Shown: one piece after another, positions 7,328-52,780 of the stretch | Layout: each line of letters begins with the position of its first letter | Numbering within the stretch: the first letter of the stretch is position 1 | Assembly: GCA_016182555.1 (NCBI GenBank) | Contig: JACPGJ010000005.1 | Span: 1-62,525, forward strand | Length of the DNA: 62,525 nt | DNA from: Candidatus Kerfeldbacteria bacterium | GTDB taxonomy: Bacteria; Patescibacteriota; Patescibacteriia; UBA9570; XYC2-FULL-38-9 | Direction: 5' to 3' | Translations under genes and position numbers: made by a program | Notes under the pieces: generated by a model | Database searches by the model: none | What the model was told of the DNA's origin: nothing | Seen by the model: only the letters and a program-made list of their open reading frames with translations

Positions 7328-7386
7328 AATTGGACAAGTTAACTATTTTTTGATATACTTGTATAAACAAATACAAATTTAATATT

Positions 7387-7648: not shown

Positions 7649-7676
7649 TCATTTTACAGCGGACAATGCGTATCCG

Positions 7677-7699
7677 ACCACCTGTTCAGAGGTGGTTTT
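7677..7699 (+). terminator. rho-independent terminator
   Basis: ACCACCT (7677-7683) / AGGTGGT (7690-7696) stem, 6-nt loop, T-run. Confidence 0.6.
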
Positions 7700-7738
7700 G
7701 CATTCTAGAATGAATTGACTTAGTATAACTTTGAGATA

Positions 7739-8473
7739 TTGATAACCAATTACCCACGGCAACTTCATCGACACGCAAACGCTAGTACCATTTTATTTTC
7801 TGTTATGAATGCCTATATTTTTTTAGGACCTACATTTGCACACTATAGAAAAGCATTGGAATGTGATATTTGGTTTAGAGGGAGTGTTACAGCAGAAGAT
7901 CAGAAGAGAATAGAATTATTGATACCATATCCACTCTCTTTGAATTTAAAATGGGGAGAATGTTTTTTACATTGTGCAACGGATGATATTTTTGAAATGC
8001 GCGTAAGAGAAAAGTATGGCAATTTTCTGAGAGCTATAAGTAGTGCCTTTTTTGGATTTACAGTCAGGGCAAACGAAAAAGAGCTGGAACGTTTTTCATT
8101 GGCTCTCAGTCATGCTTTGGATATAATTCATACGATCCATCCTATCTTGTTTTTTCTTCAACCAAAAGAAGATGGAGAATGTAAAGATAAACAAAAATTT
8201 TCAAATTGGCATGAGGAGAATGTTTCTAAAATAAGAACAGAAATCGTACCGGCGCTCATTCATTTTTTTGTTTCAAAAGAAACCAGCAATCAAGACAAGG
8301 CACAGGGAGCTTGGATTGTCAATAATCTTTTTTCTTACATTCCTCTAAACATAGAAAAAGAATATATAGATGAACTGATTAAATTAGTCAAATGCTCATT
8401 AGGGCATGATAAATATATAGATAGATATAATCATGACATTTTGGACAAACTAATAAAAAGGGTAAAGGAATAG
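7739..8473 (+). CDS. hypothetical protein
   Basis: 244-aa ORF (TTG start in track; an ATG giving MNAYIFLGP lies near 7805). No motif recognised. Confidence 0.5.
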   Translation: MITNYPRQLHRHANASTILFSVMNAYIFLGPTFAHYRKALECDIWFRGSVTAEDQKRIELLIPYPLSLNLKWGECFLHCATDDIFEMRVREKYGNFLRAISSAFFGFTVRANEKELERFSLALSHALDIIHTIHPILFFLQPKEDGECKDKQKFSNWHEENVSKIRTEIVPALIHFFVSKETSNQDKAQGAWIVNNLFSYIPLNIEKEYIDELIKLVKCSLGHDKYIDRYNHDILDKLIKRVKE

Positions 8474-8536
8474 CGCGCAAAATACAAAACGCAAAAATCT
8501 TGATTTTCTTATGGGAATTTGATATACTGTTAATAC

Positions 8537-25988: not shown

Positions 25989-26765
25989 ATGATCACATAT
26001 CATGAGCTGCATCAACAATTGTACAATTCGCTTACCGAGCTTGGTTTAACTGAGAACGAAATGAAGTTATACACACTCTCATTATTTCACGGTCCGCGAC
26101 CTGTAGCACAGCTTGCTCAGCTTATGGGTATTCCACGACCGAATATCTATAAACTTATTGTTGGACTTGAAGCGTATGGCCTTGCTCATTTTTCCCATCG
26201 CAAACGATATACACGGACATTTGTTGTAGAACCACCAAGCGCGCTTCTTGAACAACTCAGAAAAAAAAGAGAACAGATAGTCAAACTTGATCAAACCGTT
26301 ACAATGCTCATGCCAGATTTGTATGCGCTATACCATCAAGGAGAAACGCCAACTAAAATTCAGATTCTCTCTGGTGCACATCAGTATGAAAAAGCGATTC
26401 GAGAGATGTTTGATGAAGTTAAAGACGAACTTTATTTTTTTGGCTCAGTGTCACATTTTATTGATTCAGTATCGCCACAAGTATTCAGCCGCCTAACAGA
26501 GCGGCGTATTGAGCGACAGATTTGCCTAAAAGCAATGATGGTCGACGAACCCCATGTTCAAGAATTAATACAGCGTGCAAAAGAAGAATTAAGAGAAGTC
26601 AAACTGCTTCCGCAAGACAAGCAGTGCATTACGTCATTTCAACTCTCTGCTCACACCGCCCTCATTTGGCAACCAGCCGCGCCATTGGCTGTGCGGATTC
26701 AAGATGAATATATCGTTGCAATGCTGAAATTACTATTTGAACAAGTATGGAGCTCCACTCCATAA
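25989..26765 (+). CDS. TrmB-family (winged-helix) transcriptional regulator with C-terminal domain, copy 1
   Basis: N-terminal LTELGLTENEMKLYTLSLFHGPRPVAQLAQLMGIPRPNIYKLIVGLEAYGL fits the TrmB HTH pattern. Same ~255-aa architecture as 38280-39044 and 47962-48765. Confidence 0.75.
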   Translation: MITYHELHQQLYNSLTELGLTENEMKLYTLSLFHGPRPVAQLAQLMGIPRPNIYKLIVGLEAYGLAHFSHRKRYTRTFVVEPPSALLEQLRKKREQIVKLDQTVTMLMPDLYALYHQGETPTKIQILSGAHQYEKAIREMFDEVKDELYFFGSVSHFIDSVSPQVFSRLTERRIERQICLKAMMVDEPHVQELIQRAKEELREVKLLPQDKQCITSFQLSAHTALIWQPAAPLAVRIQDEYIVAMLKLLFEQVWSSTP

Positions 26766-26850
26766 TCAGCAATAACGTGAAGATGGTTTCATTGACAGCA
26801 GTCTCATTTTGAATTATACTGAAACTATACCATTTTACTTTTTTAATAAT

Positions 26851-27480
26851 ATGGTTAAAAAACTGAAACGTATACAAGTAGAAGAAAAACTCAAAACCCT
26901 CGGACTACTCGTCTTTACTCCACAACAGTTCAAAAATATTTTTGGAGTGACCAAAGAAACGGCTTCCGTGTTTATTTCTCACAATATCAGCGTAGGGGGT
27001 ATTTTCATCAAGCTGCGCAATGGGTTCTACACGGTGAAAGATGCCTACGTTTCGCATTTTTTTATAGCAAACAAACTCTATGAACCTTCATATATTTCCA
27101 TGGCTACCGCGCTGTCCCATTATGGTATTATTCCGGAAGTCGTCTACACCATCACATCCATCACGATAAAAATTTCCCGCGAATTCAACACCCCAAAAGG
27201 CGTTTTTCTTTACCAACATATCAAAAAAGAAGCATTCACGGGCTATAGCTTACAACATATTGATAACACCAAAGTACTGATCGCTGCACCAGAAAAAGCG
27301 TTGGCCGACTATCTGTATTTTGTGGATTTAAAACGAGTTTCTTTAAACGATCGATTGGAATTAAAAAACATCAAAAAATCTGTGCTTCTGGAGTTCGTCA
27401 AACTATTCGAACGCCCGAGCATGTTACAATTAGTTGACCATATATATGTTGCATATAAAAAACCTCGAACAATTTACTGA
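26851..27480 (+). CDS. abiEi: AbiEi-family antitoxin-like protein (type IV TA), copy 1
   Basis: ATG 26851 (track TTG 26809), preceded by TTGACA-17-TATACT. N-terminal wHTH-like segment (VFTPQQFKNIFGVTKETASVFISH...LRNGFYTV), then PSYISMATALSHYGIIPE typical of AbiEi. Directly upstream of AbiEii. Confidence 0.7.
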   Translation: MVKKLKRIQVEEKLKTLGLLVFTPQQFKNIFGVTKETASVFISHNISVGGIFIKLRNGFYTVKDAYVSHFFIANKLYEPSYISMATALSHYGIIPEVVYTITSITIKISREFNTPKGVFLYQHIKKEAFTGYSLQHIDNTKVLIAAPEKALADYLYFVDLKRVSLNDRLELKNIKKSVLLEFVKLFERPSMLQLVDHIYVAYKKPRTIY

Positions 27481-28171
27481 TCGATCACAAACCACCATGA
27501 TGAATGTGGTGCGGGAGTATTGCCAGCATCTTTTTTTATCACATCTCTATAAACAGCCGGGATCAGAAAAATTGCTCTTTAAGGGCGGTACGGCGCTTCG
27601 TATTGTTTTTGGGAGTCCACGATATTCTGAAGATTTAGATTTTACTGGTACAAACATTACGGAGCGAGAAATAGAAGATATTTTTACTGATACCTTGGCG
27701 AGTGTAGAAAAAACCGGTATACAGGTGACGCTAGAGGAAGGTCAACCAACGAGTGGTGGCTATATTGGCATTATGTCGTTCAATGCATACGAAAAAACCA
27801 TGCCAATACAAATTGAAATTTCGCTGCGGAAGGGTCGACCAGTAAAAGGCACCGTTGCGCTTATTGATAATGAGTATATTCCAGCATACACCCTGGTGCA
27901 TTTATCCAAGGAATCCATTGTGGAGGGAAAGATGCAAGCCCTTATCAATCGCCATAAACCAAGGGATTTTTATGATTATTTCTTTTTATTGTCGGGCAAT
28001 TATCCATTGGTGAAAGAAAAAAAGAATCTCACTATTGTTCAGCAGCTACTTGATGAAACAAAAATTAATTTCCGAAGCGAATTGAGAGAATTTCTCCCTG
28101 CCAGTCACTCCATGCACTTACGCGATTTTAAGAAGGTATTGGAACAGAAAATTAGCATTTTCCTTGGGTAA
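27434..28171 (+). CDS. abiEii: AbiEii/AbiGii-family nucleotidyltransferase toxin (DUF1814), copy 1
   Basis: LLFKGGTALRIVFGSPRYSEDLDFTG is the hallmark GGTAL...R.SEDLDF motif. Overlaps the abiEi 3' end. Confidence 0.85.
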   Translation: MTIYMLHIKNLEQFTDRSQTTMMNVVREYCQHLFLSHLYKQPGSEKLLFKGGTALRIVFGSPRYSEDLDFTGTNITEREIEDIFTDTLASVEKTGIQVTLEEGQPTSGGYIGIMSFNAYEKTMPIQIEISLRKGRPVKGTVALIDNEYIPAYTLVHLSKESIVEGKMQALINRHKPRDFYDYFFLLSGNYPLVKEKKNLTIVQQLLDETKINFRSELREFLPASHSMHLRDFKKVLEQKISIFLG

Positions 28172-33551: not shown

Positions 33552-33688
33552 ATATCCATAGTACTGGGCGAGGACTGCAATTGTCAACCCAAGTACCGCG
33601 TTCAATTTTTGCTTGTTCTTTCGACCATAAAAATTGTATAGTAGTATCGTTCGGTTTTCTCTTGATTATAAAAATACGTTTAGTTGGT

Positions 33689-34300
33689 ATGTCATTATCA
33701 CATGAAGAGGCATTGATGGCCGAAGGAATACAGTTTATGGCCGGTATTGATGAGGCTGGGCGTGGCACATGGGCTGGTCCGGTGGTAGCAGCGGCAGTCA
33801 TTATGCCTTCGTCTACGCTGGCTGCGCGCATTGTTGGCATTGCGGATTCGAAAACGTTGTCCCCTAAAAAACGTGAACGGCTTGCTGTGGAAATTCGTGC
33901 GGTGGCGGTTGCCGTGGGTATTGGCAGTGCGTCGCATGCAGAAATTGATGCGATTGGTATTGCGCCGGCAAACCGGTTGGCGATGGTGCGTGCAGTGGAA
34001 GCCTTGGGTATAGTACCCGAACACCTGCTCATTGACGCATTTTTTTTACCAGAATTGTCGCACATTCCTCAAACACCGATTATTCGTGGAGACGCCACGG
34101 TGTATTCTATTGGTGCGGCGTCAATTATCGCAAAAGTGACCCGTGATCAGATGATGCAAAAATTTCATGAAGAATTTCCAGCGTATGGATTTAATGAACA
34201 CAAAGGATACGGTACGGCTGCTCATCGTACAGCATTGGAACGGTATGGGTTGTGTTTGATTCACCGCCGAACTTTTCACCCAATGAAGACAATGATATGA
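33689..34300 (+). CDS. rnhB: ribonuclease HII
   Basis: ATG 33689 within the track ORF. GIDEAGRGTWAGPVVAAAV, DSKTLSPKKRE, ASIIAKVTRD. Confidence 0.9.
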   Translation: MSLSHEEALMAEGIQFMAGIDEAGRGTWAGPVVAAAVIMPSSTLAARIVGIADSKTLSPKKRERLAVEIRAVAVAVGIGSASHAEIDAIGIAPANRLAMVRAVEALGIVPEHLLIDAFFLPELSHIPQTPIIRGDATVYSIGAASIIAKVTRDQMMQKFHEEFPAYGFNEHKGYGTAAHRTALERYGLCLIHRRTFHPMKTMI

Positions 34301-34303: not shown

Positions 34304-34864
34304 ATGTATATGGAAGGAATGAATCAAGATAATCTGTTTGATGCGGCTGCTTTGCTCAAGCGTGCGGGCGTGCAAGAAGGCATGACCGTGGCCGATTGTG
34401 GTGTTGGCCGAACGGCAGCGGTGACTCTTGCTGCTGCTCAGCTTGTTGGTGAGCGTGGTGTGGTGTATGCGTGTGATGTCGTTCGTAGTGTGTTAGATGT
34501 TGTGAAAGCCAAAGTGGAATTAGCGCACGCGGGTAATGTACGTTTGGTGTGGACGGACTTAGAGGTGTACCGTGCCGCGAAACAAATTATTGATGAATCG
34601 GTTGATGTCGTCGTTCTTGCAGATACGTTGTCCCAATCGCAGCGGCGGGCGGCCATGTTGCATGAGTGCGCGCGTATGGTTAAGCCTGGTGGAACATTGC
34701 TGGTGGTTGAGTGGAAGCCAGATCAAACTGTGCTGGGACCGAAAGTAGAACATCGGCTGTATACAGAAGAACTTAAACCGATTGCCGAATTGAATCGGCT
34801 GGAGATACTTGAAGAATTTGAAGCTGGGGAGTATCATTGGGGGGCGTTATTACACAAGCGGTAG
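34304..34864 (+). CDS. class I SAM-dependent methyltransferase-like protein
   Basis: VADCGVGRTAAVT (motif I-like), VYACDV, VVVLADTL, VKPGGTLLVVEW. Confidence 0.6.
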   Translation: MYMEGMNQDNLFDAAALLKRAGVQEGMTVADCGVGRTAAVTLAAAQLVGERGVVYACDVVRSVLDVVKAKVELAHAGNVRLVWTDLEVYRAAKQIIDESVDVVVLADTLSQSQRRAAMLHECARMVKPGGTLLVVEWKPDQTVLGPKVEHRLYTEELKPIAELNRLEILEEFEAGEYHWGALLHKR

Positions 34865-34914
34865 CGCAGGACAGGAATATTTTTTGTATACTCTCCCCTG
34901 ACGGGGATTTTTTT

Positions 34915-35298
34915 ATGACTAGACAAACCATGGGAGCGGTGGGAGAAGAAGTTGTTGTGCGTGCTCTGAAGCGGCGCGGTTTTGATATTCTGGGGCGAAA
35001 TTTGCATACCCGTTCTGGAGAGATTGATATTTTGGCGCTGGAAGATGGAGCCGGCAAGCGTGTGCTGCATGTCATAGAAGTAAAAACACGTCGTGGTGAA
35101 TTTTTTGGTGGTGTAGAAACAGCACTCACCCGAACAAAGTTTCAAAAAATGAAACTGGCGTTGTATGAGTTGCAGGAAAAAATGGATTTGCCGTCAGTGA
35201 GCGTGGTGCAATTTGATTTTGCGGCACTCGAGGTTGTTTCCGGCAAACAGGTTCGTCTAAAATGGTTTTGGAATATTGGTGGAGATGATTTCCATTGA
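34915..35298 (+). CDS. yraN: YraN family protein (UPF0102, PD-(D/E)xK endonuclease-like)
   Basis: ATG 34915 within the track ORF. GAVGEEVVVRALKRRGFDILGRNLHTRSGEIDILA...HVIEVKTRRG is the YraN signature. Usual position after rnhB. Confidence 0.85.
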   Translation: MTRQTMGAVGEEVVVRALKRRGFDILGRNLHTRSGEIDILALEDGAGKRVLHVIEVKTRRGEFFGGVETALTRTKFQKMKLALYELQEKMDLPSVSVVQFDFAALEVVSGKQVRLKWFWNIGGDDFH

Positions 35299-35329
35299 AA
35301 TTTTTTGTCCCACTCGGAAATTGTACAAT

Positions 35330-35368
35330 AAAAAAAGAGGCCAACAAGTGATGTGCTCACTGCTGGCC
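35330..35368 (-). terminator. rho-independent terminator of the radical SAM gene (minus strand)
   Basis: Imperfect hairpin GGCCAACAAGTGA..TCACTGCTGGCC (35339-35368), followed on the minus strand by a T-run (plus-strand A-run 35330-35336). Confidence 0.6.
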
Positions 35369-35397
35369 TGGTGTGTTGCAGCGGATATAAAGACATA

Positions 35398-36702
35398 TCA
35401 AACCGCGAATGTCTCATATAGCTGCATCACCCGAGCGTTGAACTCGGCAGTAAACACTGCCGGCTTTGCCAGGCACCCCACGTTGACTTGCGCGGGTTGG
35501 CTGTAGTTGCGGGTCTGCTGCCAGGCCCACACAATGCCGTTTTGGAGTAACTGCTCCGGCGTGACAGTGTCTTGCCACTCCGTGTGGTCTGCACCCGGGC
35601 AGCGCAGCAACTGACCGGTTTCCCGAATCAGGAGCCCGCTGCAGAGTTGTGCGCAGTGGGCGATTCCCGCATACGGTGCTGGGCCGTGTTTCTGAAAATA
35701 ATCTTCAGAAATGAGCCCACGCTGCACTGAATAGCGGTGTGCCTGTGCATAGTACTGCGCAAACTGTTCCATGAACTCGTTGTTGAGTCCACGGTATAGC
35801 TTGCCTCCGCAGCCACTCTGCATGGAGGTTGTCGAGCACACCGGAATACCGCGATCGGTGAAGTATTTGAAGATTTCAAATGCTTCACCGATGGTTTCGT
35901 GTGTTATTGGTGTGTTGATGAGCATGAGCCGCCCAGGTCGGCCGCGCCCAATCTCCGCTTGCACGAAATACTTGTGCAACAGCTGAAGAGCCCGCGTCTG
36001 TACACGCTTGTAGTCGCCGGTGTAGTCTGTCTTTCCGGCAAACCCACCGCGAACAAGGTGGTTCGTCACCCAGTCATCAAACGAGCGAAAGTTGTAGAGT
36101 ATCCGCAAATTTGTATAACAGGCAAGCCGCTCCACAAACTGCTCTGCGGTGTGCAGCCCCTGCGAGCCGAAGAACTGTTCCACCTCGCAATCGTCGCCAA
36201 GCATCGGGTCTTTTGCAAATATATTCAAAAAAATGCCGAGCTGTGCGAAGCGATCCAGGTGAGCAAACAGTTCCTTGTCACGAAGAAACTCCGTGGGTCC
36301 CAGATACTTTAACGTTCTGGTGCCGAGGTTTTGAACAGCTTCCTCGATCAACGCGAAAATCTGTTCAGGATACAACAGGTCTCGCCCTTGATAGAGGTTC
36401 GGCTGCTTCACGTAGCAGCCTTTACAGTTCAGCCGGCAGTTGCCCCACAGCTTCTGCACAAGCAGTGTTTCGCGCTCTTCGCTTGGAGCCGCATTATACG
36501 CGCACACCAGTTCAGCCGGCAGCCAGTTGAACTCCAATGAGAGGAGCGGACGCAGCAGCCCGTTTGGCAACACTTGCGTAAGCTCTTCAGGAGCTACCGC
36601 AATACCTTCCAGGCTCGCGTTCATCTGAACGCCGATGTCCCGAAAAGTTTGAGTGTCAGAAGAAAAAAGTGGATCTACGTGAGACAGGGGATATACTTTC
36701 AC
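35398..36702 (-). CDS. radical SAM protein, subfamily not assignable
   Basis: CX3CX2C cluster in GNCRLNCKGCY. GTG 36702 preceded by AAGGAG (plus-strand CTCCTT at 36709-36714); the track ORF extends to 36750. Additional C-terminal Cys pairs. Visibly GC-richer than its neighbours. Confidence 0.8.
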   Translation of the reverse strand: MKVYPLSHVDPLFSSDTQTFRDIGVQMNASLEGIAVAPEELTQVLPNGLLRPLLSLEFNWLPAELVCAYNAAPSEERETLLVQKLWGNCRLNCKGCYVKQPNLYQGRDLLYPEQIFALIEEAVQNLGTRTLKYLGPTEFLRDKELFAHLDRFAQLGIFLNIFAKDPMLGDDCEVEQFFGSQGLHTAEQFVERLACYTNLRILYNFRSFDDWVTNHLVRGGFAGKTDYTGDYKRVQTRALQLLHKYFVQAEIGRGRPGRLMLINTPITHETIGEAFEIFKYFTDRGIPVCSTTSMQSGCGGKLYRGLNNEFMEQFAQYYAQAHRYSVQRGLISEDYFQKHGPAPYAGIAHCAQLCSGLLIRETGQLLRCPGADHTEWQDTVTPEQLLQNGIVWAWQQTRNYSQPAQVNVGCLAKPAVFTAEFNARVMQLYETFAV

Positions 36703-36811
36703 GATATTCTCCTTGTGAAGGTTCGTCTCAAGAGTTGTTCTTGAGAACACAAAAGAATATCAGCAAAACACTTAATTGTTTATACTCATACCGACATGTT
36801 GTTAAATATTT

Positions 36812-36831
36812 GCTATTTTTTAGCTAATATT
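36812..36831. repeat. GCTATTTTTTAGCTAATATT motif (TTAGCTAA palindrome), copy 1 of 3
   Basis: 16-nt identity (GCTATTTTTTAGCTAA) with 49883-49898. Lies in the divergent intergenic region between the radical SAM gene and abiEi. Confidence 0.9.
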
Positions 36832-36906
36832 ATATAATAATAGTGTCGAAATATTTTCCACAAATACAAATCAACTATTGCAATTTTTAATAGAAAATAC
36901 GATCTA

Positions 36907-36960
36907 TTGACAATCAGGTTAATAATATGTATCATAAAGGTAAGATTTTTTCTTACCTTT
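36907..36960 (+). promoter_or_regulatory. abiEi promoter with 10-bp inverted repeat over the predicted start site
   Basis: TTGACA (36907-36912), 17 nt, TATCAT (36930-36935), directly followed by AAAGGTAAGA-ttttt-TCTTACCTTT (36936-36960). Confidence 0.6.
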
Positions 36961-36982
36961 ACGTCTCAAATTAATAATTTGT

Positions 36983-37555
36983 ATGAATAATCCCCTTATT
37001 TTGCTAGAAAGATCAAAAAAAACAGTCTTTACAACAAAAGAACTGGCTATTCTTTGGGGTGAACAAAATATCCAAACATTAAAATCGAAAGTGAACTACT
37101 ATGTAAAAAGAGGTAAAATCATCCACATTAGAAAAGGGTTGTATGCAAAAAATGAGCACTATAACCAACATGAACTTGCGGCCAGTATTTTCGTACCATC
37201 ATATATTAGTTTTGAAACCATCCTACAACAAAATGGAATAAATTTTCAATATTACGAAACAATTTTTGTTGCCGGCATCCGATCCGCTGCTGTTGCTATT
37301 CAAAAACAAAAAATACTTTTTCATAAAATGAAAAAAAACATTCTCTACAACACCAATGGGCTTATTCATAAAGAAACATACACAGAAGCATCAACAGAAC
37401 GGGCCGTGTTAGACCTTCTCTATCTGAACAAATTAGAACATTTGGATAATCCGCGAGGGGTTGATTGGAACAAGTGCGAAGAATTGACTCCACTCTACAA
37501 TAATCAACAACTTATAAAACGTTTAAAAATTTTACGAAAACAATTCGCAGAATAA
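36983..37555 (+). CDS. abiEi: AbiEi-family antitoxin-like protein, copy 2
   Basis: N-terminal wHTH-like VFTTKELAILWGEQNIQTLKSKVNYYVKRGKIIHIRKGLYA, then PSYISFETILQQNGI. Immediately upstream of AbiEii. Confidence 0.7.
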   Translation: MNNPLILLERSKKTVFTTKELAILWGEQNIQTLKSKVNYYVKRGKIIHIRKGLYAKNEHYNQHELAASIFVPSYISFETILQQNGINFQYYETIFVAGIRSAAVAIQKQKILFHKMKKNILYNTNGLIHKETYTEASTERAVLDLLYLNKLEHLDNPRGVDWNKCEELTPLYNNQQLIKRLKILRKQFAE

Positions 37556-37563
37556 TTATCACT

Positions 37564-38265
37564 ATGCTCAACAAAGAAAAACATCATCGAATTTTGCTCC
37601 AAATCACCAAAGATATGTATACAAATATTCGCATTTCCTCGCTGCTTGGTTTTAAAGGTGGTACAGCTGCATATTTGATTTATAATCTACCACGTTTTTC
37701 GGTTGACCTTGATTTTGATTTAATTGACCCAACACCCGCGCGTATTGCCACAGTACATAAAGAGGTGCGTACAATTCTTCAGCACTATGGAACAATACAA
37801 GATGAATACAAAAAAAATTATACGTTGTTTTTTTTGTTATCGTACGAAGAAAAACATCATCATATTAAAATAGATATTTCAACTCGTGGCTGGCACAATG
37901 AGTATACTGTTCAGGAATACTTGGGTATTCCAATGTTGGTTATGAACCCGTCATATATGTTTGCAAACAAACTGGCAGCGCTTACTGATAGAAAAAAAGT
38001 ATTTATGCGAGATGTGTATGATATTTGGTATTTTTTTACGAGGCGTTGGGAAATTGAAGAATCGGTCATTCAAAAACGCACAGGAAAAACAGTGAAGCAA
38101 TATATTACTAGCGATTGTGTGCCGGTAATTGAAAAAATTAAAAATGAAGAACTCCTGCTTGGACTTGGCGAATATCTCAATGAATCACAGAGAAGTTTTG
38201 TAAAAACAAAATTGAAGCAAGAAGTATTATTTCAGTTGCGTATTTTGGCCGATTCATTGAAATAA
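37564..38265 (+). CDS. abiEii: AbiEii/AbiGii-family nucleotidyltransferase toxin (DUF1814), copy 2
   Basis: LLGFKGGTAAYLIYNLPRFSVDLDFDL hallmark motif. Confidence 0.85.
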   Translation: MLNKEKHHRILLQITKDMYTNIRISSLLGFKGGTAAYLIYNLPRFSVDLDFDLIDPTPARIATVHKEVRTILQHYGTIQDEYKKNYTLFFLLSYEEKHHHIKIDISTRGWHNEYTVQEYLGIPMLVMNPSYMFANKLAALTDRKKVFMRDVYDIWYFFTRRWEIEESVIQKRTGKTVKQYITSDCVPVIEKIKNEELLLGLGEYLNESQRSFVKTKLKQEVLFQLRILADSLK

Positions 38266-38279
38266 TGAAATAAAACACT

Positions 38280-39044
38280 ATGATTTACCCTAAAATTTTG
38301 CAACAACTTGGATTTTCGCAAAAAGAAATAGCAGTGTATGCGGCGTTATTGGAATTGGATAGCGCAACAGCTGGCGAAATTGCAGACAAAACAGAAATTA
38401 ACCGAACCAGCTGTTATGACATTCTCGATTCACTCATGAAAAAAGGCATCATCAGCAAATTCAAAAAAAAGACAAAAATTTATTTTCATGCCGGCGACCC
38501 AAAACGGTTAATTGCCTACCTGGAACGTGAACGCGAAGAGGCAAATAAAAAAATTACCAAACAACAACAACTGGTGAAAGAAGCTTTGCCCGAACTGTCT
38601 TCATTGTTGCATCCGCAAAACACTAAGCCAAAGGTCACTTTTTTTGAAGGCGAAAAAGGTATGCGTGAAGCATATGAAGATACGCTTACTTCTACAGAAA
38701 CGATTCTTGCATACGCGAATGCTGAAACGATGCATAAAGGATTGCCAAATTTTTTCCCGGAATATTATAAAAGAAGAGCAGGCGCAGGCATTTCTATTAA
38801 AGCGATTATTCCAGACAATGAGGTAGATCGAAAACAAATTGTGCATAATGCAGAAGAAGCACGTGAATCAGTTTTTTTACCCAACCCTGAAATGACTTTT
38901 TCACCAGAAGTGAATATTTATAACGATAAAGTCTTGATTGCATCGTGGAATGAAAAAATGGCAGTGCTTATTGAATCGCGTGAATTCGCTCAATTGCAAA
39001 AACTCATCTATCAGTTACTTTGGAAAAGTTTGAAAAGCAAATAA
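38280..39044 (+). CDS. TrmB-family transcriptional regulator with C-terminal domain, copy 2
   Basis: LQQLGFSQKEIAVYAALLELDSATAGEIADKTEINRTSCYDILDSLMKKGII. Shares EAYEDTLTS...FPEYYKRRA...NIY(N/D)(D/N)KV blocks with 47962-48765. Confidence 0.8.
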   Translation: MIYPKILQQLGFSQKEIAVYAALLELDSATAGEIADKTEINRTSCYDILDSLMKKGIISKFKKKTKIYFHAGDPKRLIAYLEREREEANKKITKQQQLVKEALPELSSLLHPQNTKPKVTFFEGEKGMREAYEDTLTSTETILAYANAETMHKGLPNFFPEYYKRRAGAGISIKAIIPDNEVDRKQIVHNAEEARESVFLPNPEMTFSPEVNIYNDKVLIASWNEKMAVLIESREFAQLQKLIYQLLWKSLKSK

Positions 39045-39067
39045 TCATCTTTCATGATTACATAAAT

Positions 39068-39178
39068 TTGCCGTCGGTGGCCGCAGTGCAATTCGATTTC
39101 GCGGCGTTGGAAGTGTTGCCCGAAAAACACGCTCGCCTGCAATGGTTCTGGAATATCAGCGCCGAGGACTTTCGTTAA
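39068..39178 (+). pseudogene. orphan 3' fragment of a second yraN copy (last ~37 codons)
   Basis: Translates to LPSVAAVQFDFAALEVLPEKHARLQWFWNISAEDFR*, compared with the yraN C-terminus LPSVSVVQFDFAALEVVSGKQVRLKWFWNIGGDDFH*. No start codon and no N-terminal part. Confidence 0.8.
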
Positions 39179-39196: not shown

Positions 39197-39242
39197 TTGA
39201 CATATTGGATATTTTTGGATACACTGTGATTATAATATCCAA
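39197..39242 (+). promoter_or_regulatory. fic promoter with TTGGATAT/ATATCCAA repeats
   Basis: TTGACA (39197-39202), 17 nt, TACACT (39220-39225). TTGGATAT 39205-39212, TTGGATAC 39215-39222, inverted ATATCCAA 39235-39242. Confidence 0.6.
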
Positions 39243-39252: not shown

Positions 39253-40281
39253 ATGCTTATTTTAGAAAAAATAGATGCGCTTCGTGAAGCTATTCAGACA
39301 TTTCGACCATTTAATGATAGCCTGCAAAAAACACTGCAAGAGCAATTACGCATTGAATGGACATACAATTCTAACGCGATTGAAGGGAACACGCTCACGC
39401 TCGGAGAGACCGCATTTTTTTTGCGTGAAGGGTTAACGTCAGAAGGTCGGCCGTTGAAAGATTATTTGGAAGCAAAAAACCACGCTGAAGCAATCGACCG
39501 CTTGAATGATATTGTTCAAGGAAAGCGTTCAATAACAGAGTCACTCATTAAGGAGCTTCATGGTGTGTTGATGAAAGGCATGGATTTTACTATTGCCCGT
39601 GGAATGGACGGTCAGATGATTCATAAACGCCTACATGTCGGTGAATATAAAAAGCAACCGAATCATGTACTCACACTTTCTGGAAAGATTCACGAATACG
39701 CCGATCCCATTCATGTGCACGATGAAATGGAAGCATTGCTGGATTGGGTCGGGTCGGAAACAACCATGCACCCCGTTGAACGAGCAGCGCGTTTCCATTA
39801 TCGCTTCGTGAGTATTCACCCGTTTGATGATGGCAATGGGAGAATGAGTCGATTGTTGATGAATTTACTCCTGACGCAGGCAGGGTATTACCCTTGCATT
39901 ATTCAAAATGCCCATCGTCGAAAATATATTCAAACGCTAGAAGAAGCGGACAGTTCTCAAAATGATACCACTTTTATACAGTTTGTTGCAGATGAATTGC
40001 TTGCGACAGAGCAAAAAGTGTTCGATATTATTCAAGGGAAAGTTGTGGCACTTACTCAAGCAACGACCATATTGAATAGCGTGGAGCGCCGAGAACGTAT
40101 TATGCATGTGTTGCGTACTGCCGATTCCCCACTGGCGATGGGACAAATGAGTGAGCTGTTGCCAGAGCTTAAGCGACCAACGCTGAAAAAAGATTTGCAG
40201 CAATTAGTGCGGGAGCGCTTGGTGAGCTCTTATGGCAAAGGGAGAAACATGTTGTATGCGGTACCACAAAAGAAAATCTAG
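39253..40281 (+). CDS. Fic family protein (class II, N-terminal inhibitory motif, C-terminal winged helix)
   Basis: ATG 39253 within the track ORF. Fic motif HPFDDGNGRMSRLL. Inhibitory-helix-like SNAIEGN ((S/T)xxxE(G/N)). C-terminal wHTH-like RPTLKKDLQQLVRERLVSSYGKGRN. Confidence 0.9.
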   Translation: MLILEKIDALREAIQTFRPFNDSLQKTLQEQLRIEWTYNSNAIEGNTLTLGETAFFLREGLTSEGRPLKDYLEAKNHAEAIDRLNDIVQGKRSITESLIKELHGVLMKGMDFTIARGMDGQMIHKRLHVGEYKKQPNHVLTLSGKIHEYADPIHVHDEMEALLDWVGSETTMHPVERAARFHYRFVSIHPFDDGNGRMSRLLMNLLLTQAGYYPCIIQNAHRRKYIQTLEEADSSQNDTTFIQFVADELLATEQKVFDIIQGKVVALTQATTILNSVERRERIMHVLRTADSPLAMGQMSELLPELKRPTLKKDLQQLVRERLVSSYGKGRNMLYAVPQKKI

Positions 40282-40330
40282 CCGACTCTCTGCAACAGTG
40301 AAAATTTTGGGATTGCAAAAACCAATATAA

Positions 40331-40469
40331 GGGATCATACGCAAAAGCACAGGTAGAAGGTTATAATTTAAGCATAGAGTTTACCAACCCTGAAAAGGAA
40401 GGGATATCTCTGACACCACGAAGGATCATACGCAATATAGGGTTCTAGCCATATATTGCGTATGATCCC
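40331..40469. mobile_element. 139-bp MITE-like element with 14-bp perfect terminal inverted repeats
   Basis: GGGATCATACGCAA (40331-40344) and TTGCGTATGATCCC (40456-40469). Internal third copy forms a 17-bp hairpin (40423-40439/40452-40468). TAA on both flanks. Confidence 0.5.
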
Positions 40470-40612
40470 TAAAGAACTGCAATTACAACTATTGAGTAAT
40501 GACTCTTTTTCTTGACAAAATTTTTGGTGGAAGTATACTGCTAATAAGACTAGCATCCATATGCTGGTTTTTTTGATGATTAAAAAATAGATCAATATAA
40601 CCAAGAAGCTCT

Positions 40613-41917
40613 ATGGCAAAAAGTGAACTGATCGCCGCCATTGAACAGGTGTGCGATGAAAAAAACATTCCATTCGATTCCGTTGTGGATTCGATCGAGG
40701 CCGCCCTTGCGGTGGCGTACCGAAAAGAATTCGGTAATAAAATGCTGAACTGCCGCGTGGAATTCAACCCGGAAGATGGTTCTTCGCGCATTTTTGATGT
40801 GAAAACTGTTGTGGAAGATCCGAAAGAGGAAGACCTCGCTGCACAAGCAGAAGAAGAAAAAAAGAAAGCGGAAGAAGCGGTGAAAGGGAAAAGGCGTGAA
40901 CGTCGAGGTCGCGATGAAGAAAAAAGCGAACCGGCAGAAGATGATGTGAAGCGGTTCAACCCACGCACAGACCTTTCACTGACCGAAGCAAAAAAAGTGA
41001 AAGCAGATGCCGAAATTGGAGATGAAATGATTAGTGAGCTTCCGGTACCAGAAGGCTATGGTCGTGTAGCCGCACAAACTGCCAAACAGGTGATTATTCA
41101 AAAGTTGCGTGAAGCAGAGCGTGAAACATTATACAACCAGTATAAAGATCGTATTGGCGAAATTGTGAATGCGACAGTACAACGCGTAGAGGGACCGTTG
41201 GTCTATATGGACTTGGGTCAAGCGACAGCGATTATGCCACCAAATCAACAGTCACCCAACGAACGCTATCATATTGGTGCCCGCTTCAAAGTATTGTTGC
41301 TTTCCGTGGAAAAAACGAACAAAGGACCAGAGATTATTGCTTCCCGTACGGCGCCGGAAATGGTGAAAGTATTTTTCGCCATGGAAGTACCGGAAATTGC
41401 ATCTGAGTCTATTGAAATCATGTCAGTTGCGCGTGAAGCGGGTTCGCGAACCAAAATTGCGGTGCGAAGTCTTGTAGATAATATTGACCCCATCGGTTCG
41501 TGCGTTGGTCAACGTGGCGCGCGTGTACAAACAGTCATGAGCGAAATCGGTGGCGAAAAAATTGATATTATTGAATACAGCGATGATGCTGTGCGCTTTA
41601 TTGTGAATGCATTGTCACCCGCTAAAGTGGTTTCTGTGCAATTAGATGAAGCAGAAAAAGTGGCGAAAGCATACGTGGCAGAAGATCAGTTGTCTTTGGC
41701 AATTGGTAAAGGCGGTCAGAATGTTCGCTTAGCCGCAAAACTGACGGGTTGGAAAATTGATGTGGTGAAAGACGCTAGCTCTCCAGAAGCAGAAAATACG
41801 GAGGAAGCTGTTGGTGAATCAGAAACTGAAACACCAACTGAAGAAGTAACTGTTGAACCGATGGAAGAAAAATCCAACGAAGTGGAAAAAGAAAAGGCCG
41901 CTGAATCCGAAAAATAA
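40613..41917 (+). CDS. nusA: transcription termination/antitermination factor NusA (with charged insertion and acidic tail)
   Basis: N-terminal LIAAIEQVCDEKNIPFDSVVDSIEAALAVAYRK, FGRVAAQTAKQVIIQKLREAER-type segment, S1 and two KH domains (GSCVGQRGARVQ, AIGKGGQNVRLAAKLTGWKIDV). Confidence 0.9.
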   Translation: MAKSELIAAIEQVCDEKNIPFDSVVDSIEAALAVAYRKEFGNKMLNCRVEFNPEDGSSRIFDVKTVVEDPKEEDLAAQAEEEKKKAEEAVKGKRRERRGRDEEKSEPAEDDVKRFNPRTDLSLTEAKKVKADAEIGDEMISELPVPEGYGRVAAQTAKQVIIQKLREAERETLYNQYKDRIGEIVNATVQRVEGPLVYMDLGQATAIMPPNQQSPNERYHIGARFKVLLLSVEKTNKGPEIIASRTAPEMVKVFFAMEVPEIASESIEIMSVAREAGSRTKIAVRSLVDNIDPIGSCVGQRGARVQTVMSEIGGEKIDIIEYSDDAVRFIVNALSPAKVVSVQLDEAEKVAKAYVAEDQLSLAIGKGGQNVRLAAKLTGWKIDVVKDASSPEAENTEEAVGESETETPTEEVTVEPMEEKSNEVEKEKAAESEK

Positions 41918-47961: not shown

Positions 47962-48765
47962 TCAACCCGCTTTTTTCTTTATCTGCACATGATGCAGCGG
48001 ACAGATTTTTTTCTCCCATGTTTTTGCTTGTTCCCAGGCTAAATCAAAAATTTTTCGTTGCGCTTGTGCCATTTCTGCGCTTTCAATAATCATGGCAAAC
48101 TGGTCGCGCCAGAAGAAAAATACCACTTTGTTATCGTAGATGTTTATTTCCGGAGTGAATTGATAGGTGTCTGCTGGCACAAGTAGTGACGTTCTATCTT
48201 CCTGTTTATCACGCTTATGCAATGCCACCGCCATTTTGGTGTGCGGGAAAATTGCGTCAATATGTATTTTACGTTTTGCTCGGCGTTTGTAGTATTCGGG
48301 AAAGTAATCCGGCAGTGTATTTTCAGTATCGTCCACCGATGCGTATGCTTTAATGCTTTCAGAAGAGGTCAGCGTGTCTTCGTAGGCACTCTGAATTCCT
48401 TTTTTTCCTTCGTAGATTTGCACTTTTGGTGTATGGATTCCACTGTTGACTAATGATTTCAGCTCCGGCAGAATTTTTCGTGCTTTTTCCGCCATTTGCG
48501 TAAATTGTTTTGCCCGAAATTCCATGAGGCTCACAAATCGGTCTGGGGGAACCGCGGTGAATGTTTTTTTGTTGTTGCGTTCGGATTGAATAATTAACCC
48601 TTGTTGTGCAAGTTCGCGCAGGATCACGTACGCGGTGGAGCGGTTCAAACGCGCTTGCACGGCAATGCGAGCTGGCGAGGTTGTGCCGAGTTTGAGGGTT
48701 GATAAATAGACCAAAGATTGTTTGGGCGACAGGCCGAATTGTTGTAAGTGGTCTTCCAGGATCAT
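47962..48765 (-). CDS. TrmB-family transcriptional regulator with C-terminal domain, copy 3
   Basis: LQQFGLSPKQSLVYLSTLKLGTTSPARIAVQARLNRSTAYVILRELAQQGLI. C-terminal blocks shared with 38280-39044. Confidence 0.8.
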   Translation of the reverse strand: MILEDHLQQFGLSPKQSLVYLSTLKLGTTSPARIAVQARLNRSTAYVILRELAQQGLIIQSERNNKKTFTAVPPDRFVSLMEFRAKQFTQMAEKARKILPELKSLVNSGIHTPKVQIYEGKKGIQSAYEDTLTSSESIKAYASVDDTENTLPDYFPEYYKRRAKRKIHIDAIFPHTKMAVALHKRDKQEDRTSLLVPADTYQFTPEINIYDNKVVFFFWRDQFAMIIESAEMAQAQRKIFDLAWEQAKTWEKKICPLHHVQIKKKAG

Positions 48766-49987: not shown

Positions 49988-51424
49988 ATGAAAATTCAAA
50001 TTACCCAATATATTCAAGAGCAATTAGTCCGTGCGCAAGATCGGTTGAGAGCAAATACCGTCTCTTCTGTCGGGATCGTGTACCCTGAGCGTCACATTTT
50101 CATAACCCTGAAAAAAAAAATTCATGATTTTTATGCGAATGTTTCTCAGGAACGGTGGGTCGTTATTCCAGGGCTGCGCGGTGTAGGAAAAACCACGGTT
50201 GTCTCACAGCTTTATTTTTATATTGTTCAAGAAATGAAGGTTGCACAAAACCGCGTGTTATATGTTTCTCTGGATGAAGTTGAAGACTTGGGCGGGTCGC
50301 TGCAAGATGTGTTAGCGAGTTATGAATATATTCTTGGTCAAAGTTATGAATCACAACAAGAACCGTTGTTTTTATTATTAGACGAAGTACAAGTAGATAC
50401 TCGCTGGGCCAAAACACTTAAAACACTCTATGAACGTTCTCATACAGTATTTGTGTTGTGCACGGGGTCGTCTGCAGTGGAGCTACAGTCGACAGCCGAT
50501 GCAGAACGCCGAGCCATTTTCCATAAAATGTTTCCCATGAGTTTTTCCGAATATCAAATGATCAAAAATCAGGTGTATCCCGAAAACGGTTTACAACAGA
50601 GTTTGATTAACGCCGTGTATTATGCGAACTCTGTTCAAGAAGCGCACCAACAATTGTCCGTTCTCGATCAACAAATTCAAAAGTATTGGTCGATGATTGA
50701 TCAATTCGATATACAAGAATATTTTTCTATCGGCACATTACCATTCGCTATTGGGCGCACAAATGAATACCAAGTGTATCAAGCCATTCTACGATTGTTA
50801 GACCAGGTGATTATGAAAGATATTCAGAGCATGAGTAATTTTGAATATGAGACAACGCTCAAAATAAAATCGCTACTGTATTTGTTAGCAGACAGTAATG
50901 ACGTGCTGTCGTTTAGCACTATCGGGAACACCATTGGTTTACTTCGCCTAACACTCAACGATATTTTTGAAGCATTAGAAAAAACCGAATTACTGATACG
51001 GGCGTATCCGCATGGATCAAATACAGGTAGAGCCACAAAGCCTTCAAAATTTGTATTTATGAGTCCGGCAATTCGCCAAGCATTAACCATTATCTCTGGC
51101 AAAAAAGCGACAAATGAAACTGCGCGTGGGCATTTGTTGGAAGATGTTGTGGGTTTGCATGTATACAGAGAATTTGTGACGCAGCATAAAGGTTCGTTGA
51201 CGTATGATGCTTCTGAAGGTGGAGCGGACTTTATTTTAGAATTGCACAATCAACGACAAATTGTTATTGAAGTGGGTATGAATAAAAAAGACTCGAAACA
51301 AGTGCAAAAAACAATGAATAAAATTGGGAGTGATTACGGTATGGTGATTAGCCAGCAAGAATTGAATGTAGATGCAGAGAAAAATATGTTGTTTCTTCCG
51401 TTGAAGGTGTTTTTGTTGATGTAA
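49988..51424 (+). CDS. AAA-family ATPase (AAA_14/DUF4143-like), paralog 1
   Basis: Walker A GLRGVGKTT, Walker B LLLDEVQ. C-terminal EGGADFILE...IVIEVG segment. Confidence 0.7.
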   Translation: MKIQITQYIQEQLVRAQDRLRANTVSSVGIVYPERHIFITLKKKIHDFYANVSQERWVVIPGLRGVGKTTVVSQLYFYIVQEMKVAQNRVLYVSLDEVEDLGGSLQDVLASYEYILGQSYESQQEPLFLLLDEVQVDTRWAKTLKTLYERSHTVFVLCTGSSAVELQSTADAERRAIFHKMFPMSFSEYQMIKNQVYPENGLQQSLINAVYYANSVQEAHQQLSVLDQQIQKYWSMIDQFDIQEYFSIGTLPFAIGRTNEYQVYQAILRLLDQVIMKDIQSMSNFEYETTLKIKSLLYLLADSNDVLSFSTIGNTIGLLRLTLNDIFEALEKTELLIRAYPHGSNTGRATKPSKFVFMSPAIRQALTIISGKKATNETARGHLLEDVVGLHVYREFVTQHKGSLTYDASEGGADFILELHNQRQIVIEVGMNKKDSKQVQKTMNKIGSDYGMVISQQELNVDAEKNMLFLPLKVFLLM

Positions 51425-51547: not shown

Positions 51548-52780
51548 ATGATTGATAAAATCCTCGAACAATTAAATCCTTGGTGGTCAGCACAGCCTAT
51601 AGACAACGGAATACTTCGAACCAAGTATCTAGATATTTTGAATGAAAACCGAACGAATAAAGAGGTGATATTTTTATTGGGTTCTCGGCGCGTGGGCAAA
51701 ACAACTATTATGAAGCAATGGGTGGGGGAGTTAATTACCAAGTATGGCGTTCAGCCAAAACAAATTTTGTATGTCTTGTTGGATCATCCAGAATTAGATA
51801 ATTATTCTATTTCACAAATCATTGAAACAGCCCGCACGCTGGCTGGCGAAGTGAAGTATGTATTATTAGACGAAATTCAATATCGCTCTGGTTGGGATCA
51901 AGAATTGAAGGCGTTATATGAAACGCAGAAGATGAAGTTTGTTATTTCGGGTTCCGCAATTACGGTACTTTCAAAACAGAAGTCATATCTCACGGGCCGC
52001 TATCTTAAATATATTGTACACTCATTGAATTTTACAGAGTTTCAGCAATTCTCGGCTAAGAAAACAATACAAGATTATTTAACTATTGGCGGATATCCCG
52101 AATATGTATTACGAAATAATCCGCAATATTTATTAGATTTAATCGACCATATTGTTTATAAAGATATTGTGGAAGTCTATGGCATTCGTCATCCGAAAGC
52201 GATTGCTGACTTGCTGCTTATTTTGGCTCGAAGTGTCGGGCATAAAATTAGTTTATCTAAAATTTCACGCACGTTACAGATATCCATTGATACAGTGAAA
52301 GAATATATTCAGCATTTGGAAGAGGTCTATCTTATTCATGAAGTACCAAAATTTTCCCGTTCATTAAATGAACAATTGTATAATGAAAAAAAGTATTATT
52401 TTTATGATACGGGGTTATGTAGTGTATTAAACGCAGAACAACAGATGGGTGCATTAGCAGAGAATGCAGTGGCGAATTACCTCAAAAAGCAACAACGAAC
52501 TTTCTTTTATTACTATGCGAATAAACGCGAGTGTGATTTTGTGATTGAACAGTTTGGTGGTGTCGCAGAAAAAACATATACGCCGATTGAAAGTAAATTT
52601 GATCCTGAAGGGAATAGTATAGAATGGGATGACAAACGATTGAGTGGTTTTTATGAAGCTATTGATAAACTCCATCCAGAACACGCCAGTATTATTACAT
52701 CGAAACAGCACGGAGAGAAAAAATACGGCCATACTTCTTTAGATATGATTTCATTAGAAGTATTTTTGAGTGCGCAATAA
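51548..52780 (+). CDS. AAA-family ATPase with DUF4143-type C-terminal PD-(D/E)xK-like domain, paralog 2
   Basis: NPWW start typical of the family, Walker A GSRRVGKTT, Walker B VLLDEIQ. C-terminal ECDFVIE...PIESKF (D...ExK). Confidence 0.75.
   Translation: MIDKILEQLNPWWSAQPIDNGILRTKYLDILNENRTNKEVIFLLGSRRVGKTTIMKQWVGELITKYGVQPKQILYVLLDHPELDNYSISQIIETARTLAGEVKYVLLDEIQYRSGWDQELKALYETQKMKFVISGSAITVLSKQKSYLTGRYLKYIVHSLNFTEFQQFSAKKTIQDYLTIGGYPEYVLRNNPQYLLDLIDHIVYKDIVEVYGIRHPKAIADLLLILARSVGHKISLSKISRTLQISIDTVKEYIQHLEEVYLIHEVPKFSRSLNEQLYNEKKYYFYDTGLCSVLNAEQQMGALAENAVANYLKKQQRTFFYYYANKRECDFVIEQFGGVAEKTYTPIESKFDPEGNSIEWDDKRLSGFYEAIDKLHPEHASIITSKQHGEKKYGHTSLDMISLEVFLSAQ

Follow-up and report, generated by a model that had tools for sequence, protein, structure and literature searches.

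How does a housekeeping gene come to have a second copy of its own last codons several kilobases downstream, and which of the two copies is the native one? The question is raised by a 62,525-nt stretch of DNA from a Candidatus Kerfeldbacteria bacterium (contig JACPGJ010000005.1 of GenBank assembly GCA_016182555.1), hereafter called the window; all coordinates are window positions, with 1 as the first letter, unless another locus is named. In the window, an intact yraN gene (34915-35298, plus strand) is followed by a block of four genes, encoding a radical SAM enzyme, the predicted toxin-antitoxin proteins AbiEi and AbiEii and a TrmB-like regulator (35326-39044), and then by an orphaned yraN 3' end (39068-39178, plus strand). 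The block is foreign, and the orphan, 111 nt (possibly 129 nt) long and without function, is what is left of a second yraN allele, probably that of another lineage. A preliminary description of this DNA, made from the letters alone, had proposed that incoming DNA restored yraN with a 3' end of its own and pushed the native terminus downstream. We tentatively prefer a different reading, in which the locus is the scar of a recombination between lineages without an integrase: the intact yraN would be native, and the orphan would have been imported with the cassette by way of a circle.

An orphaned second copy of the yraN 3' end

The intact gene encodes a 127 aa protein of the YraN family (UPF0102), as judged over the whole domain. 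It matches Pfam PF02021 at 5e-16 (59.4 bits, cut-off 23.6) and NCBIfam YraN at 1e-20, and both the EVKTR motif and the invariant Asp, D101, are conserved. Copy 1 of the repeat consists of the last 37 codons of this gene, D101 included (35188-35298, plus strand), and copy 2 is the orphan, a pseudogene fragment of 37 codons including the stop. Aligned without gaps, the two agree at 78 of 111 nucleotides (70%), while the next best ungapped match of the 111-mer elsewhere in the window, on both strands, reaches 50/111 over a background of 28.4 +/- 4.7. Their translations are identical at 24 of 36 residues (25 of 37 with the aligned stop), and the stops fall in the same column, just as the preliminary description had estimated by hand. 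Its view of the second segment as an orphan also holds, i.e., the segment has no N-terminal part. The only open reading frame (ORF) listed over it is one of 52 aa with a TTG start (39020-39178), the first 16 codons of which are unlike yraN, and with only the last 37 codons present the orphan is not by itself a member of the YraN family.

The 33 nucleotide differences between the copies are distributed 6/7/20 over codon positions 1/2/3, and the Nei-Gojobori method (NG86) gives a proportion of nonsynonymous differences (pN) of 0.18, a proportion of synonymous differences (pS) of 0.73, which is saturated, and a ratio of nonsynonymous to synonymous substitution rates (dN/dS) of 0.076. With so low a ratio at saturated synonymous sites, both copies must have been working genes in separate lineages for nearly all of their separation. 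Between the resident yraN and that of the presumed source lineage of the orphan, the divergence equals that seen in core genes of different Kerfeldbacteria lineages (see below). One could suppose instead that the 3' end was duplicated in situ and that the unused copy then diverged. Both copies lie on one contig in direct orientation and are far nearer to each other than to any other YraN, as such a duplication would have it; but a dead copy would decay evenly and with frameshifts or stop codons, none of which are present, and the intervening DNA is foreign. We consider a duplication in situ very improbable.

An artificial join of two related populations at a common sequence deserves the same scrutiny, given that this is a metagenome contig whose two yraN ends differ in composition. 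However, a Logan contig from a second assembly (run SRR12113422) is 100% identical over 14.9 kb spanning all junctions, and no exact word of more than 10 nt is common to the two copies, which is too short for any assembler join; together, these two facts exclude an assembly join. Moreover, 13 independent Kerfeldbacteria contigs show the cassette contiguous and with an unchanged gene order. A chimera is thus hardly credible.

The preliminary description had the similarity begin abruptly at TTTGCCGTC in both copies. This is essentially right, as the left edge of the repeat lies at TTTGCCGTC and the exact identity there, ATTTGCCGTC (10 nt), is the longest between the copies; two further runs of identity are 8 nt long, and at 69% identity, chance alone should give a run of about 10 nt within 129 nt. 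The abruptness needs some qualification, however, since the 18 nt to the left of ATTTGCCGTC match at 11/18 positions in frame, with mismatches mostly in third positions (P ~0.002 for random pairs). Because of this match, the remnant may begin at 39050, only 5 nt past the trmB stop, in which case 39050-39067 of the junction spacer (39045-39067, plus strand) would be a weakly conserved start of the remnant corresponding to yraN codons 85-90. Left of 39050, no significant yraN similarity was found. A remnant reaching into the end of trmB itself (AAAGTTTGAAAA) was considered and rejected, as the match is not significant (P ~0.1) and the tail of TrmB resembles that of its family as far as the stop. 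A third, older yraN remnant, as tandem accretion would be expected to leave between fic and nusA, was not found there.

The block between the copies was acquired horizontally

Loci from other genomes used for comparison are given L-numbers (L083, L084, etc.), of which the most informative is L083, from Kerfeldbacteria RIFOXYC2_FULL_38_9, hereafter the Kerfeldbacteria copy. Window positions 35413-39025 match L083 7666-11287 with 81.8% identity over 3632 nt, intergenic DNA included. In L083, the same four genes stand in the same order between a cyclodipeptide-synthase (CDPS) gene and an AAA_14/DUF4143 gene, and 13 independent contigs of that Kerfeldbacteria population show the same context with the block contiguous. 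We take the limits of the horizontally shared block, 35326-39044, from the start and end of this similarity, which stops about 28 nt past the yraN stop and at the trmB stop; the terminator piece at 35331-35360 still matches at 29/30 positions. Neither yraN copy is part of the shared block. In the Kerfeldbacteria copy, there is no yraN fragment, no yraN-like attachment sequence and no flanking duplication; a parallel duplication, of the 3' end of the CDPS gene, was looked for there and not found.

As a baseline for the divergence of the two lineages we used seven syntenic core genes, namely infB, rbfA, DHH, clpP, a SAM_HAT_C-domain gene (SAM hydroxide adenosyltransferase-like), rny and a DAGK-like gene. 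These have pS values of 0.71-0.85 and 54-73% nucleotide identity. The block genes, compared to the Kerfeldbacteria copy, have pS values of 0.59 (radical SAM), 0.37 (abiEi), 0.41 (abiEii) and 0.60 (trmB), and the spacer between the radical SAM gene and abiEi matches at 201/232 nt. Because the block falls below the saturated core genes, it, or parts of it, must have moved between the lineages after their split. The synonymous substitution rate (dS) is 0.5-0.6 for abiEi and abiEii and 1.2 for the flanking radical SAM and trmB genes, and the toxin-antitoxin core is the part of the block that moved most recently. The DNA between the repeat copies is foreign, acquired horizontally, as the preliminary description had proposed, and the same cargo, which it had advised looking for at other loci, is present in L083.

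The host itself appears from protein matches to be a poorly sampled Kerfeldbacteria-related bacterium of the Candidate Phyla Radiation (CPR). A NusA search matched only Patescibacteria, at no more than 58% identity (NusA-anchored scans gave 54-58% at best), and an IF-2 search retrieved Patescibacteria at 72-73% and 'Candidatus Kerfeldbacteria' metagenome-assembled genomes from Rifle at 68%. The contig of the IF-2 relatives at 73% stops short of the yraN slot. The nearest YraN among 5.8 billion proteins is 43% identical, and one top YraN match (P0003) sits in a non-CPR context. Exact-protein look-ups of YraN, Fic and NusA returned the same contig only, or nothing, and scans of Joint Genome Institute (JGI) metagenome and viral data with motifs common to both copies (VQFDF and WFWNI) gave no match. 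JGI sample 3300025152 contains both the host's closest IF-2 relative and block-carrying Kerfeldbacteria. With only distant relatives at hand, every synteny argument made here is limited.

The slot between yraN and nusA was ancestrally empty

In six related loci (L026, L112, L128, L133, L136 and L137), yraN lies about 80-330 nt upstream of nusA, and the order rnhB, methyltransferase gene, yraN, nusA also occurs in the distant CPR loci L009, L093, L099 and L136. A single lineage-specific membrane protein is encoded between yraN and nusA in L009 and L024. The window has the same flanks: rnhB (RNase HII; 33581-34300, plus strand; Pfam RNase_HII 8e-41) and a SAM-methyltransferase gene (34304-34864, plus strand; Ubie_methyltran/Methyltransf_11) on the left, and nusA (40613-41917, plus strand; NusA Pfam domains) on the right. 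From the yraN stop (35298) to nusA (40613) there are 5.3 kb, which hold the four-gene block, the orphan and a fic gene (39253-40281, plus strand) with a promoter-like site at 39197-39225 (plus strand). The fic product is Fic/SoFic-like with a C-terminal winged helix-turn-helix (wHTH), matching Pfam Fic at 2e-21 and, in PADLOC, PDC-S04 at 2e-42 and SoFic at 5e-36.

The slot contains no fic in any of the related loci, nor did we find a relative with the order yraN-fic. Since yraN directly precedes nusA in the relatives, fic is an insert too, and a native terminus placed before fic cannot be ancestral. On this point, the preliminary description does not hold up: it had taken the native terminus directly in front of the fic promoter as the original state and had looked to relatives for an empty site in which yraN is directly followed by fic, whereas yraN abuts nusA there.

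Base composition and the question of the native copy

The preliminary description had noted a mosaic composition between the copies. The contrast is real, with G+C in 300-nt windows rising to 0.60 inside the radical SAM gene and dropping to 0.25 at 36750-37049. However, the Kerfeldbacteria copy shows the same pattern against a background of 37% G+C, as measured by G+C at third codon positions (GC3), i.e., 0.61 for the radical SAM gene, 0.24-0.26 for AbiE and 0.40 for TrmB. The mosaic was therefore inherited with the block, as a property of the block, and gives no evidence of several insertions in the window.

The two yraN ends are another matter. Host genes have a GC3 of about 0.40, or a mean of 14.5 +/- 3.5 G/C per 37 codons. 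The 5' part of yraN (0.38) and copy 1 (0.41) are both host-like, while the orphan has a GC3 of 0.68 (25/37), a level reached by 0.36% of host 37-codon windows versus 42% of radical SAM windows. If the orphan were the resident end, yraN would once have contained a GC3 jump of +0.29, as is seen at 0.13% of comparable positions; the jump at copy 1 is +0.02, and the largest at a gene terminus among 49 genes is +0.22. In a beta-binomial calculation, the likelihood ratio for a foreign orphan is 5-60, according to which donor prior is taken and whether the 18-nt extension is included. In composition, copy 1 continues the 5' part of yraN and the orphan is atypical, which does not support the earlier view of the orphan as the displaced native terminus.

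Two other sources of high GC3 were considered and rejected. It is not a trait of yraN 3' ends, which are not GC3-rich in nine relatives, nor is it a trait of the radical SAM family as such, the L084 homologue being host-like at 0.32. The radical SAM gene of the block (35398-36702; L083 10001-11299) nevertheless keeps a GC3 of 0.61-0.63 in two AT-rich genomes at a dS of ~1.2, while trmB, at the same dS, is AT-rich in both.

Possible routes of insertion

No integrase or transposase was found between 30 and 53 kb, where all ORFs were assigned, nor within 15 kb of the island, in agreement with the preliminary description; the 3.9 kb of the island are filled by its four genes. The block ends at 35326 and 39044 show no terminal inverted repeats, no short direct repeats and no target duplication, so that the transposase, inverted repeats and target-site duplication of an insertion sequence or transposon are all missing. 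Viral scans with the radical SAM enzyme, AbiEii and TrmB gave no match, and neither did a blastn search of plasmids and phages with the entire island. A single mobility gene was found on the contig, that of an IS110 transposase (293-1405; DEDD_Tnp_IS110 and Transposase_20), 34 kb from the island.

With 70% identity and synonymous sites that are saturated, a RecA-type crossover within yraN is implausible, and long anchors in neighbouring genes are unlikely. Nevertheless, the fragment comes from precisely the gene found 3.7 kb upstream, and the site of the event must therefore have been set by yraN homology or synteny. We propose a donor in which yraN and the radical SAM gene were convergent neighbours, as they are in the window. 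A donor segment from about codon 85 of yraN through the spacer, the radical SAM gene, abiE and trmB would have closed into a circle, joining the end of trmB to the yraN fragment, and one crossover where the resident yraN ends, i.e., at the right edge, would have brought this circle in, leaving yraN native and the orphan foreign. The homology of yraN would have positioned the circle, with no integrase encoded by the element. A crossover at the right edge would also make the two GC3-rich pieces, the orphan and the radical SAM gene, former neighbours. The same scheme with a crossover at the left edge would yield the direction of the preliminary description, with the in-gene end foreign and the orphan resident; the circular intermediate may have existed and the crossover may have fallen at the right edge, and the direction depends on that position. 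All in all, the orphan is somewhat more likely to have been imported than to be a displaced resident end, the GC3 composition suggesting the former and the microhomology the latter.

We would like to note several points that weigh against import by way of a circle, which we hold to be possible rather than established. A codon-usage log-likelihood ratio puts the orphan at only the 6th percentile of host windows, and its per-codon likelihood is normal under host usage. The high GC3 of the radical SAM gene in two AT-rich genomes means that the composition of the cassette is partly gene-specific, and hence a shaky guide to origin. The identical stretch ATTTGCCGTC is at the left edge, and if a crossover took place there, by short homology or site-specifically, the orphan would be the resident copy; the right edge has no microhomology beyond AAAT. 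No donor with yraN beside the radical SAM gene was found, as the homologues in L083, L084, L086 and L088 adjoin other genes, and the Kerfeldbacteria copy has no yraN fragment. Finally, circularisation and a crossover at the end of the homology are two illegitimate steps.

A replacement of the 3' end, as in the preliminary description, is also a reasonable candidate, though we lean away from it. Incoming copy 1 and the cassette would have recombined in yraN at or near ATTTGCCGTC, pushing the resident terminus to its place before fic, with a recombinase acting in trans or since lost, or by short homology. The architecture is the canonical one, with an intact gene, an in-frame swap, an orphan with the same stop and 10 nt of identity at the left edge. 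The last 37 codons hold the invariant Asp, so an insertion there would require a replacement end, and there are precedents in e14/icd/icdC (PMC13626634) and in displacements that leave orphaned 3' regions (PMC5361080). The codon-usage ratio of the orphan, only mildly unusual, also fits a resident fragment. Against this stand the orphan's GC3 and the jump it implies, both rare in the genome, the seamless continuation of the 5' part into copy 1, and the likelihood ratio given above. The 18 nt to the left of the supposed core are yraN-like as well, no integrase is present, the Kerfeldbacteria cassette has no yraN-like attachment sequence or flanking duplication, and crossing-over of the RecA type inside yraN is implausible at this divergence. 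Alternatively, the cassette could have been resident first, and a later import of a segment running from the yraN 3' end through fic (and perhaps nusA and beyond) could have recombined homologously at its right end, in or beyond nusA, and been joined illegitimately after trmB at its left. This would account for a foreign-looking orphan right before fic and for the fact that no relative has fic in the slot; of the nearby genes, nusA is the best conserved and so the most plausible anchor, and homology-facilitated illegitimate recombination is documented (PMC5361080; see also PMC3240628). However, fic (GC3 0.42, and 0.24 in its first 37 codons) and nusA (0.39) are unlike the orphan, long identical anchors in neighbouring genes are unlikely given the synonymous saturation of the yraN alleles, and no relative has the order yraN-fic, all of which makes this route unlikely.

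A further idea, which we regard as a long shot, is that the TrmB-radical SAM(-AbiE) cassette is itself a self-contained CPR mobile unit without an integrase, relocating as a circle and inserting beside a resident gene, or into its 3' end, by pairing with a captured fragment of that gene. The TrmB-like DNA-binding protein or recombination functions of the host would then do the work. If true, this would explain the varying loci of the cassette, its limits at a terminator and a stop codon, and the yraN fragment in the window.

Comparison with known systems

The cryptic prophage e14 in icd of E. coli K-12 offers a close parallel, in that the intact gene runs on into the element, at the far end of which a C-terminal pseudogene (icdC) is left as an orphan (PMC13626634). 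In both cases, a foreign segment stands between the functional 3' end of a housekeeping gene and an orphaned, slightly different C-terminal fragment, and the gene remains intact. In contrast to the yraN locus, where there is no recombinase, e14 encodes an integrase, can excise and possesses a defined att core. The two yraN ends differ by 30% and have no more than 10 identical nt in a row, the same cassette occurs elsewhere without such repeats, and composition suggests that the orphan, rather than the in-gene copy, is the foreign piece. Of the features of a site-specific integrative element, the window locus has the 3'-end duplicate that keeps the gene intact, but neither an integrase of its own nor the same target or attP elsewhere.

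Displacement of C-terminal regions in rhs, type VI secretion system (T6SS) effector-immunity and contact-dependent inhibition (CDI) loci, with homology-facilitated illegitimate recombination as the suggested mechanism, also brings in a new 3' region with cargo and leaves an orphaned 3' fragment downstream, without an integrase (PMC5361080). Unlike yraN, those loci have a highly conserved 5' core as anchor, arrays of orphans and polymorphic toxins. The YraN protein is small, belongs to the PD-(D/E)xK type and has a conserved C-terminal Asp and no toxin/immunity organisation; its gene has no conserved/variable split, a single orphan, no third remnant, and alleles too diverged for an in-gene anchor. 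The orphaned 3' fragment is thus found, but not the conserved core, toxic tip, immunity gene and orphan array of a displacement locus. The window locus resembles e14/icd and the displacement loci in outcome only.

A radical SAM-TrmB pair with a nested AbiE cassette

Profile matches agree with the cargo as the preliminary description had listed it: a terminator, an opposite-strand radical SAM gene, abiEi, abiEii and a trmB-like gene. Its term 'accessory island' is apt insofar as the block is foreign, but the radical SAM and TrmB-like genes form a conserved CPR pair with a conserved operator-like element, and only AbiEi/AbiEii is a nested insert.

The terminator, a hairpin and T-run read from the sequence and common to L083, lies downstream of the radical SAM gene and between it and the convergent yraN (35331-35375, minus strand). 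The radical SAM gene (35398-36702, minus strand; GC3 0.63) has a GTG start after AAGGAG and encodes a 434 aa enzyme of a CPR family with a CxxxCxxC motif. It retrieved 66 homologues, nearly all 54-62% identical, with one at 80% from Kerfeldbacteria RIFOXYC2_FULL_38_9. The motif cysteines (C88, C92 and C95) are invariant in 34 sequences, and there are further conserved C-terminal cysteines. The Pfam Radical_SAM match is weak (4e-5; 24.3 bits, below the cut-off of 29.5), and searches of NCBIfam, PADLOC and PDB sequences gave no match. The AlphaFold model has a predicted local distance difference test (pLDDT) score of 90, and its best fold matches are all radical SAM enzymes (DesII, EpeE, BlsE and CteB) with template modelling (TM) scores of 0.36-0.45. 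The protein is like those radical SAM enzymes that have an auxiliary domain of the twitch/SPASM type (DesII, BlsE, EpeE, CteB) in its motif, its extra C-terminal cysteines and its best structural matches, and unlike them in that those TM scores come with only 10-12% identity and in that the family is CPR-conserved and always paired with a TrmB-like gene. A palindrome inside the gene (35854-35892) has an 18-bp stem and encodes the conserved IGEAFEIFKYFTD. As an element in its own right it was rejected, since self-complementarity, 0.87 here, is 0.46-0.62 in three homologues, and a search for the motif in L083 failed to find it; for the most part, the palindrome follows from the encoded peptide.

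The TrmB-like regulator (38280-39044, plus strand; 254 aa) matches Pfam TrmB PF01978 at 4e-18 (65.5 bits, cut-off 25.6) and is 84% identical to its counterpart in L083 and 62% to that in L084. Like other TrmB-family regulators, it has an N-terminal TrmB winged helix and a near-palindromic putative operator in its own promoter region; unlike the sugar-sensing equivalogs, it scores 34 bits versus 500-650 for TrmB/TrmBL1 and 22 versus 530 for TrmBL2. The promoter (TTGCTA-17-TATAAT) and the putative operator TGTCGAAATATTTTCCACA (36845-36863) together span 36810-36863 on the plus strand. In L084, L086 and L088, AbiE is missing and the TrmB-like and radical SAM genes form a divergent pair whose position among core genes varies; the pair is at a different locus in every genome examined. 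The promoter and TGTCGAAATATTTTCCACA are nearly identical in L083, L084, L086 and L088, and directly precede trmB in the last three. The TGTCGAAATATTTTCCACA element, probably the operator of the TrmB-like regulator itself, is almost invariant in CPR genomes whose radical SAM proteins are only ~60% identical. In L088, we saw by eye that the pair is flanked by two copies of a 23-nt palindromic terminator, CAGTGGTCGCAAYGATCACTG (~4975-5000 and 7305-7330), which is absent from the repeat-tool list; flanking terminator copies of this type were not seen in L084, L086, L083 or the window.

In the window and in L083, the element is kept, but abiEi-abiEii with its own promoter now separates it from trmB. 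The 'island' is accordingly made up of a conserved pair of regulator and enzyme into which a predicted toxin-antitoxin cassette has been inserted. This AbiE cassette (36907-38265, plus strand), between the putative trmB operator and trmB, comprises its promoter (36907-36935), abiEi (36983-37555, plus strand; PADLOC AbiEi 8.9e-52, over residues 5-184 of 190 aa) and abiEii (37564-38265, plus strand; PADLOC AbiEii 5.7e-66, over residues 3-228 of 233 aa; Pfam AbiEii 7e-21, 75.7 bits with a cut-off of 22.5); the NCBIfam equivalog cut-offs for AbiE were missed. The pair is like known AbiE type IV toxin-antitoxin systems in the adjacency of abiEi (wHTH antitoxin-regulator) and abiEii (DUF1814 nucleotidyltransferase), its strong profile matches and its own promoter, and unlike them in being nested in the leader of another operon.

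Related genes occur elsewhere on the contig. At 25989-28171, a TrmB-like gene (25989-26765), an ORF of 223 aa and an AbiEii gene (27434-28171) are found, 24-28% identical to those of the island, meaning that TrmB-like and AbiE genes stand together twice on the contig. A third TrmB paralogue (47962-48765, minus strand) is 38% identical to the island's TrmB. Two AAA_14/DUF4143 ATPase genes lie at 49988-51424 and 51548-52780; a gene of this kind also follows trmB in L083 (6271-7494). A second Fic-domain gene (59674-60759, minus strand) is 24% identical to the fic at 39253-40281.

Other features of the window

Some further features of the slot and its flanks may be recorded. In the closest available relatives, a small membrane-protein gene lies between the methyltransferase gene and yraN (L093 1349-1759; L128 9055-9477); the window has only 50 nt there (34865-34914), with a terminator-like hairpin at 34892-34907. 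The fic-nusA spacer (40330-40470) contains a hairpin with a 20-bp stem, GGATCATACGCAATATAGGG / CCATATATTGCGTATGATCC, at 40423-40468, and a third copy of GGATCATACGCAA at 40332, a motif otherwise absent from the window. A strong promoter-like site for nusA is located at 40512-40539. An Rfam search for structured RNAs in 34.5-40.7 kb gave no match. Near the start of the window, 5000-9000 is low in G+C (33-37%) and holds a methyltransferase gene, a DUF4240 gene and further ORFs, possibly a further acquired segment.

Implications

Evidence of horizontal transfer in Patescibacteria usually comes from trees or from composition alone. Here, a physical junction of the transfer survives, in that a dead piece of yraN, probably from another lineage, lies beside a cassette 82% identical to that of a different Kerfeldbacteria lineage from the same habitat type. 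The junction is a concrete marker with which the donor and the empty site can be sought in better-sampled metagenomes, and the gap between yraN and nusA is identified as an insertion slot in this clade. The locus also carries a caution, since the G+C mosaic travels with the cassette and composition points opposite to the textbook reading of which repeat is native. In addition, a CPR pair of a radical SAM enzyme and a TrmB-like regulator is delineated, together with its putative operator and the AbiE cassette nested in its leader. As a recombination scar, the locus is of a familiar kind, though found in an unfamiliar phylum, and its value is that of a datable, physically marked transfer between CPR lineages.

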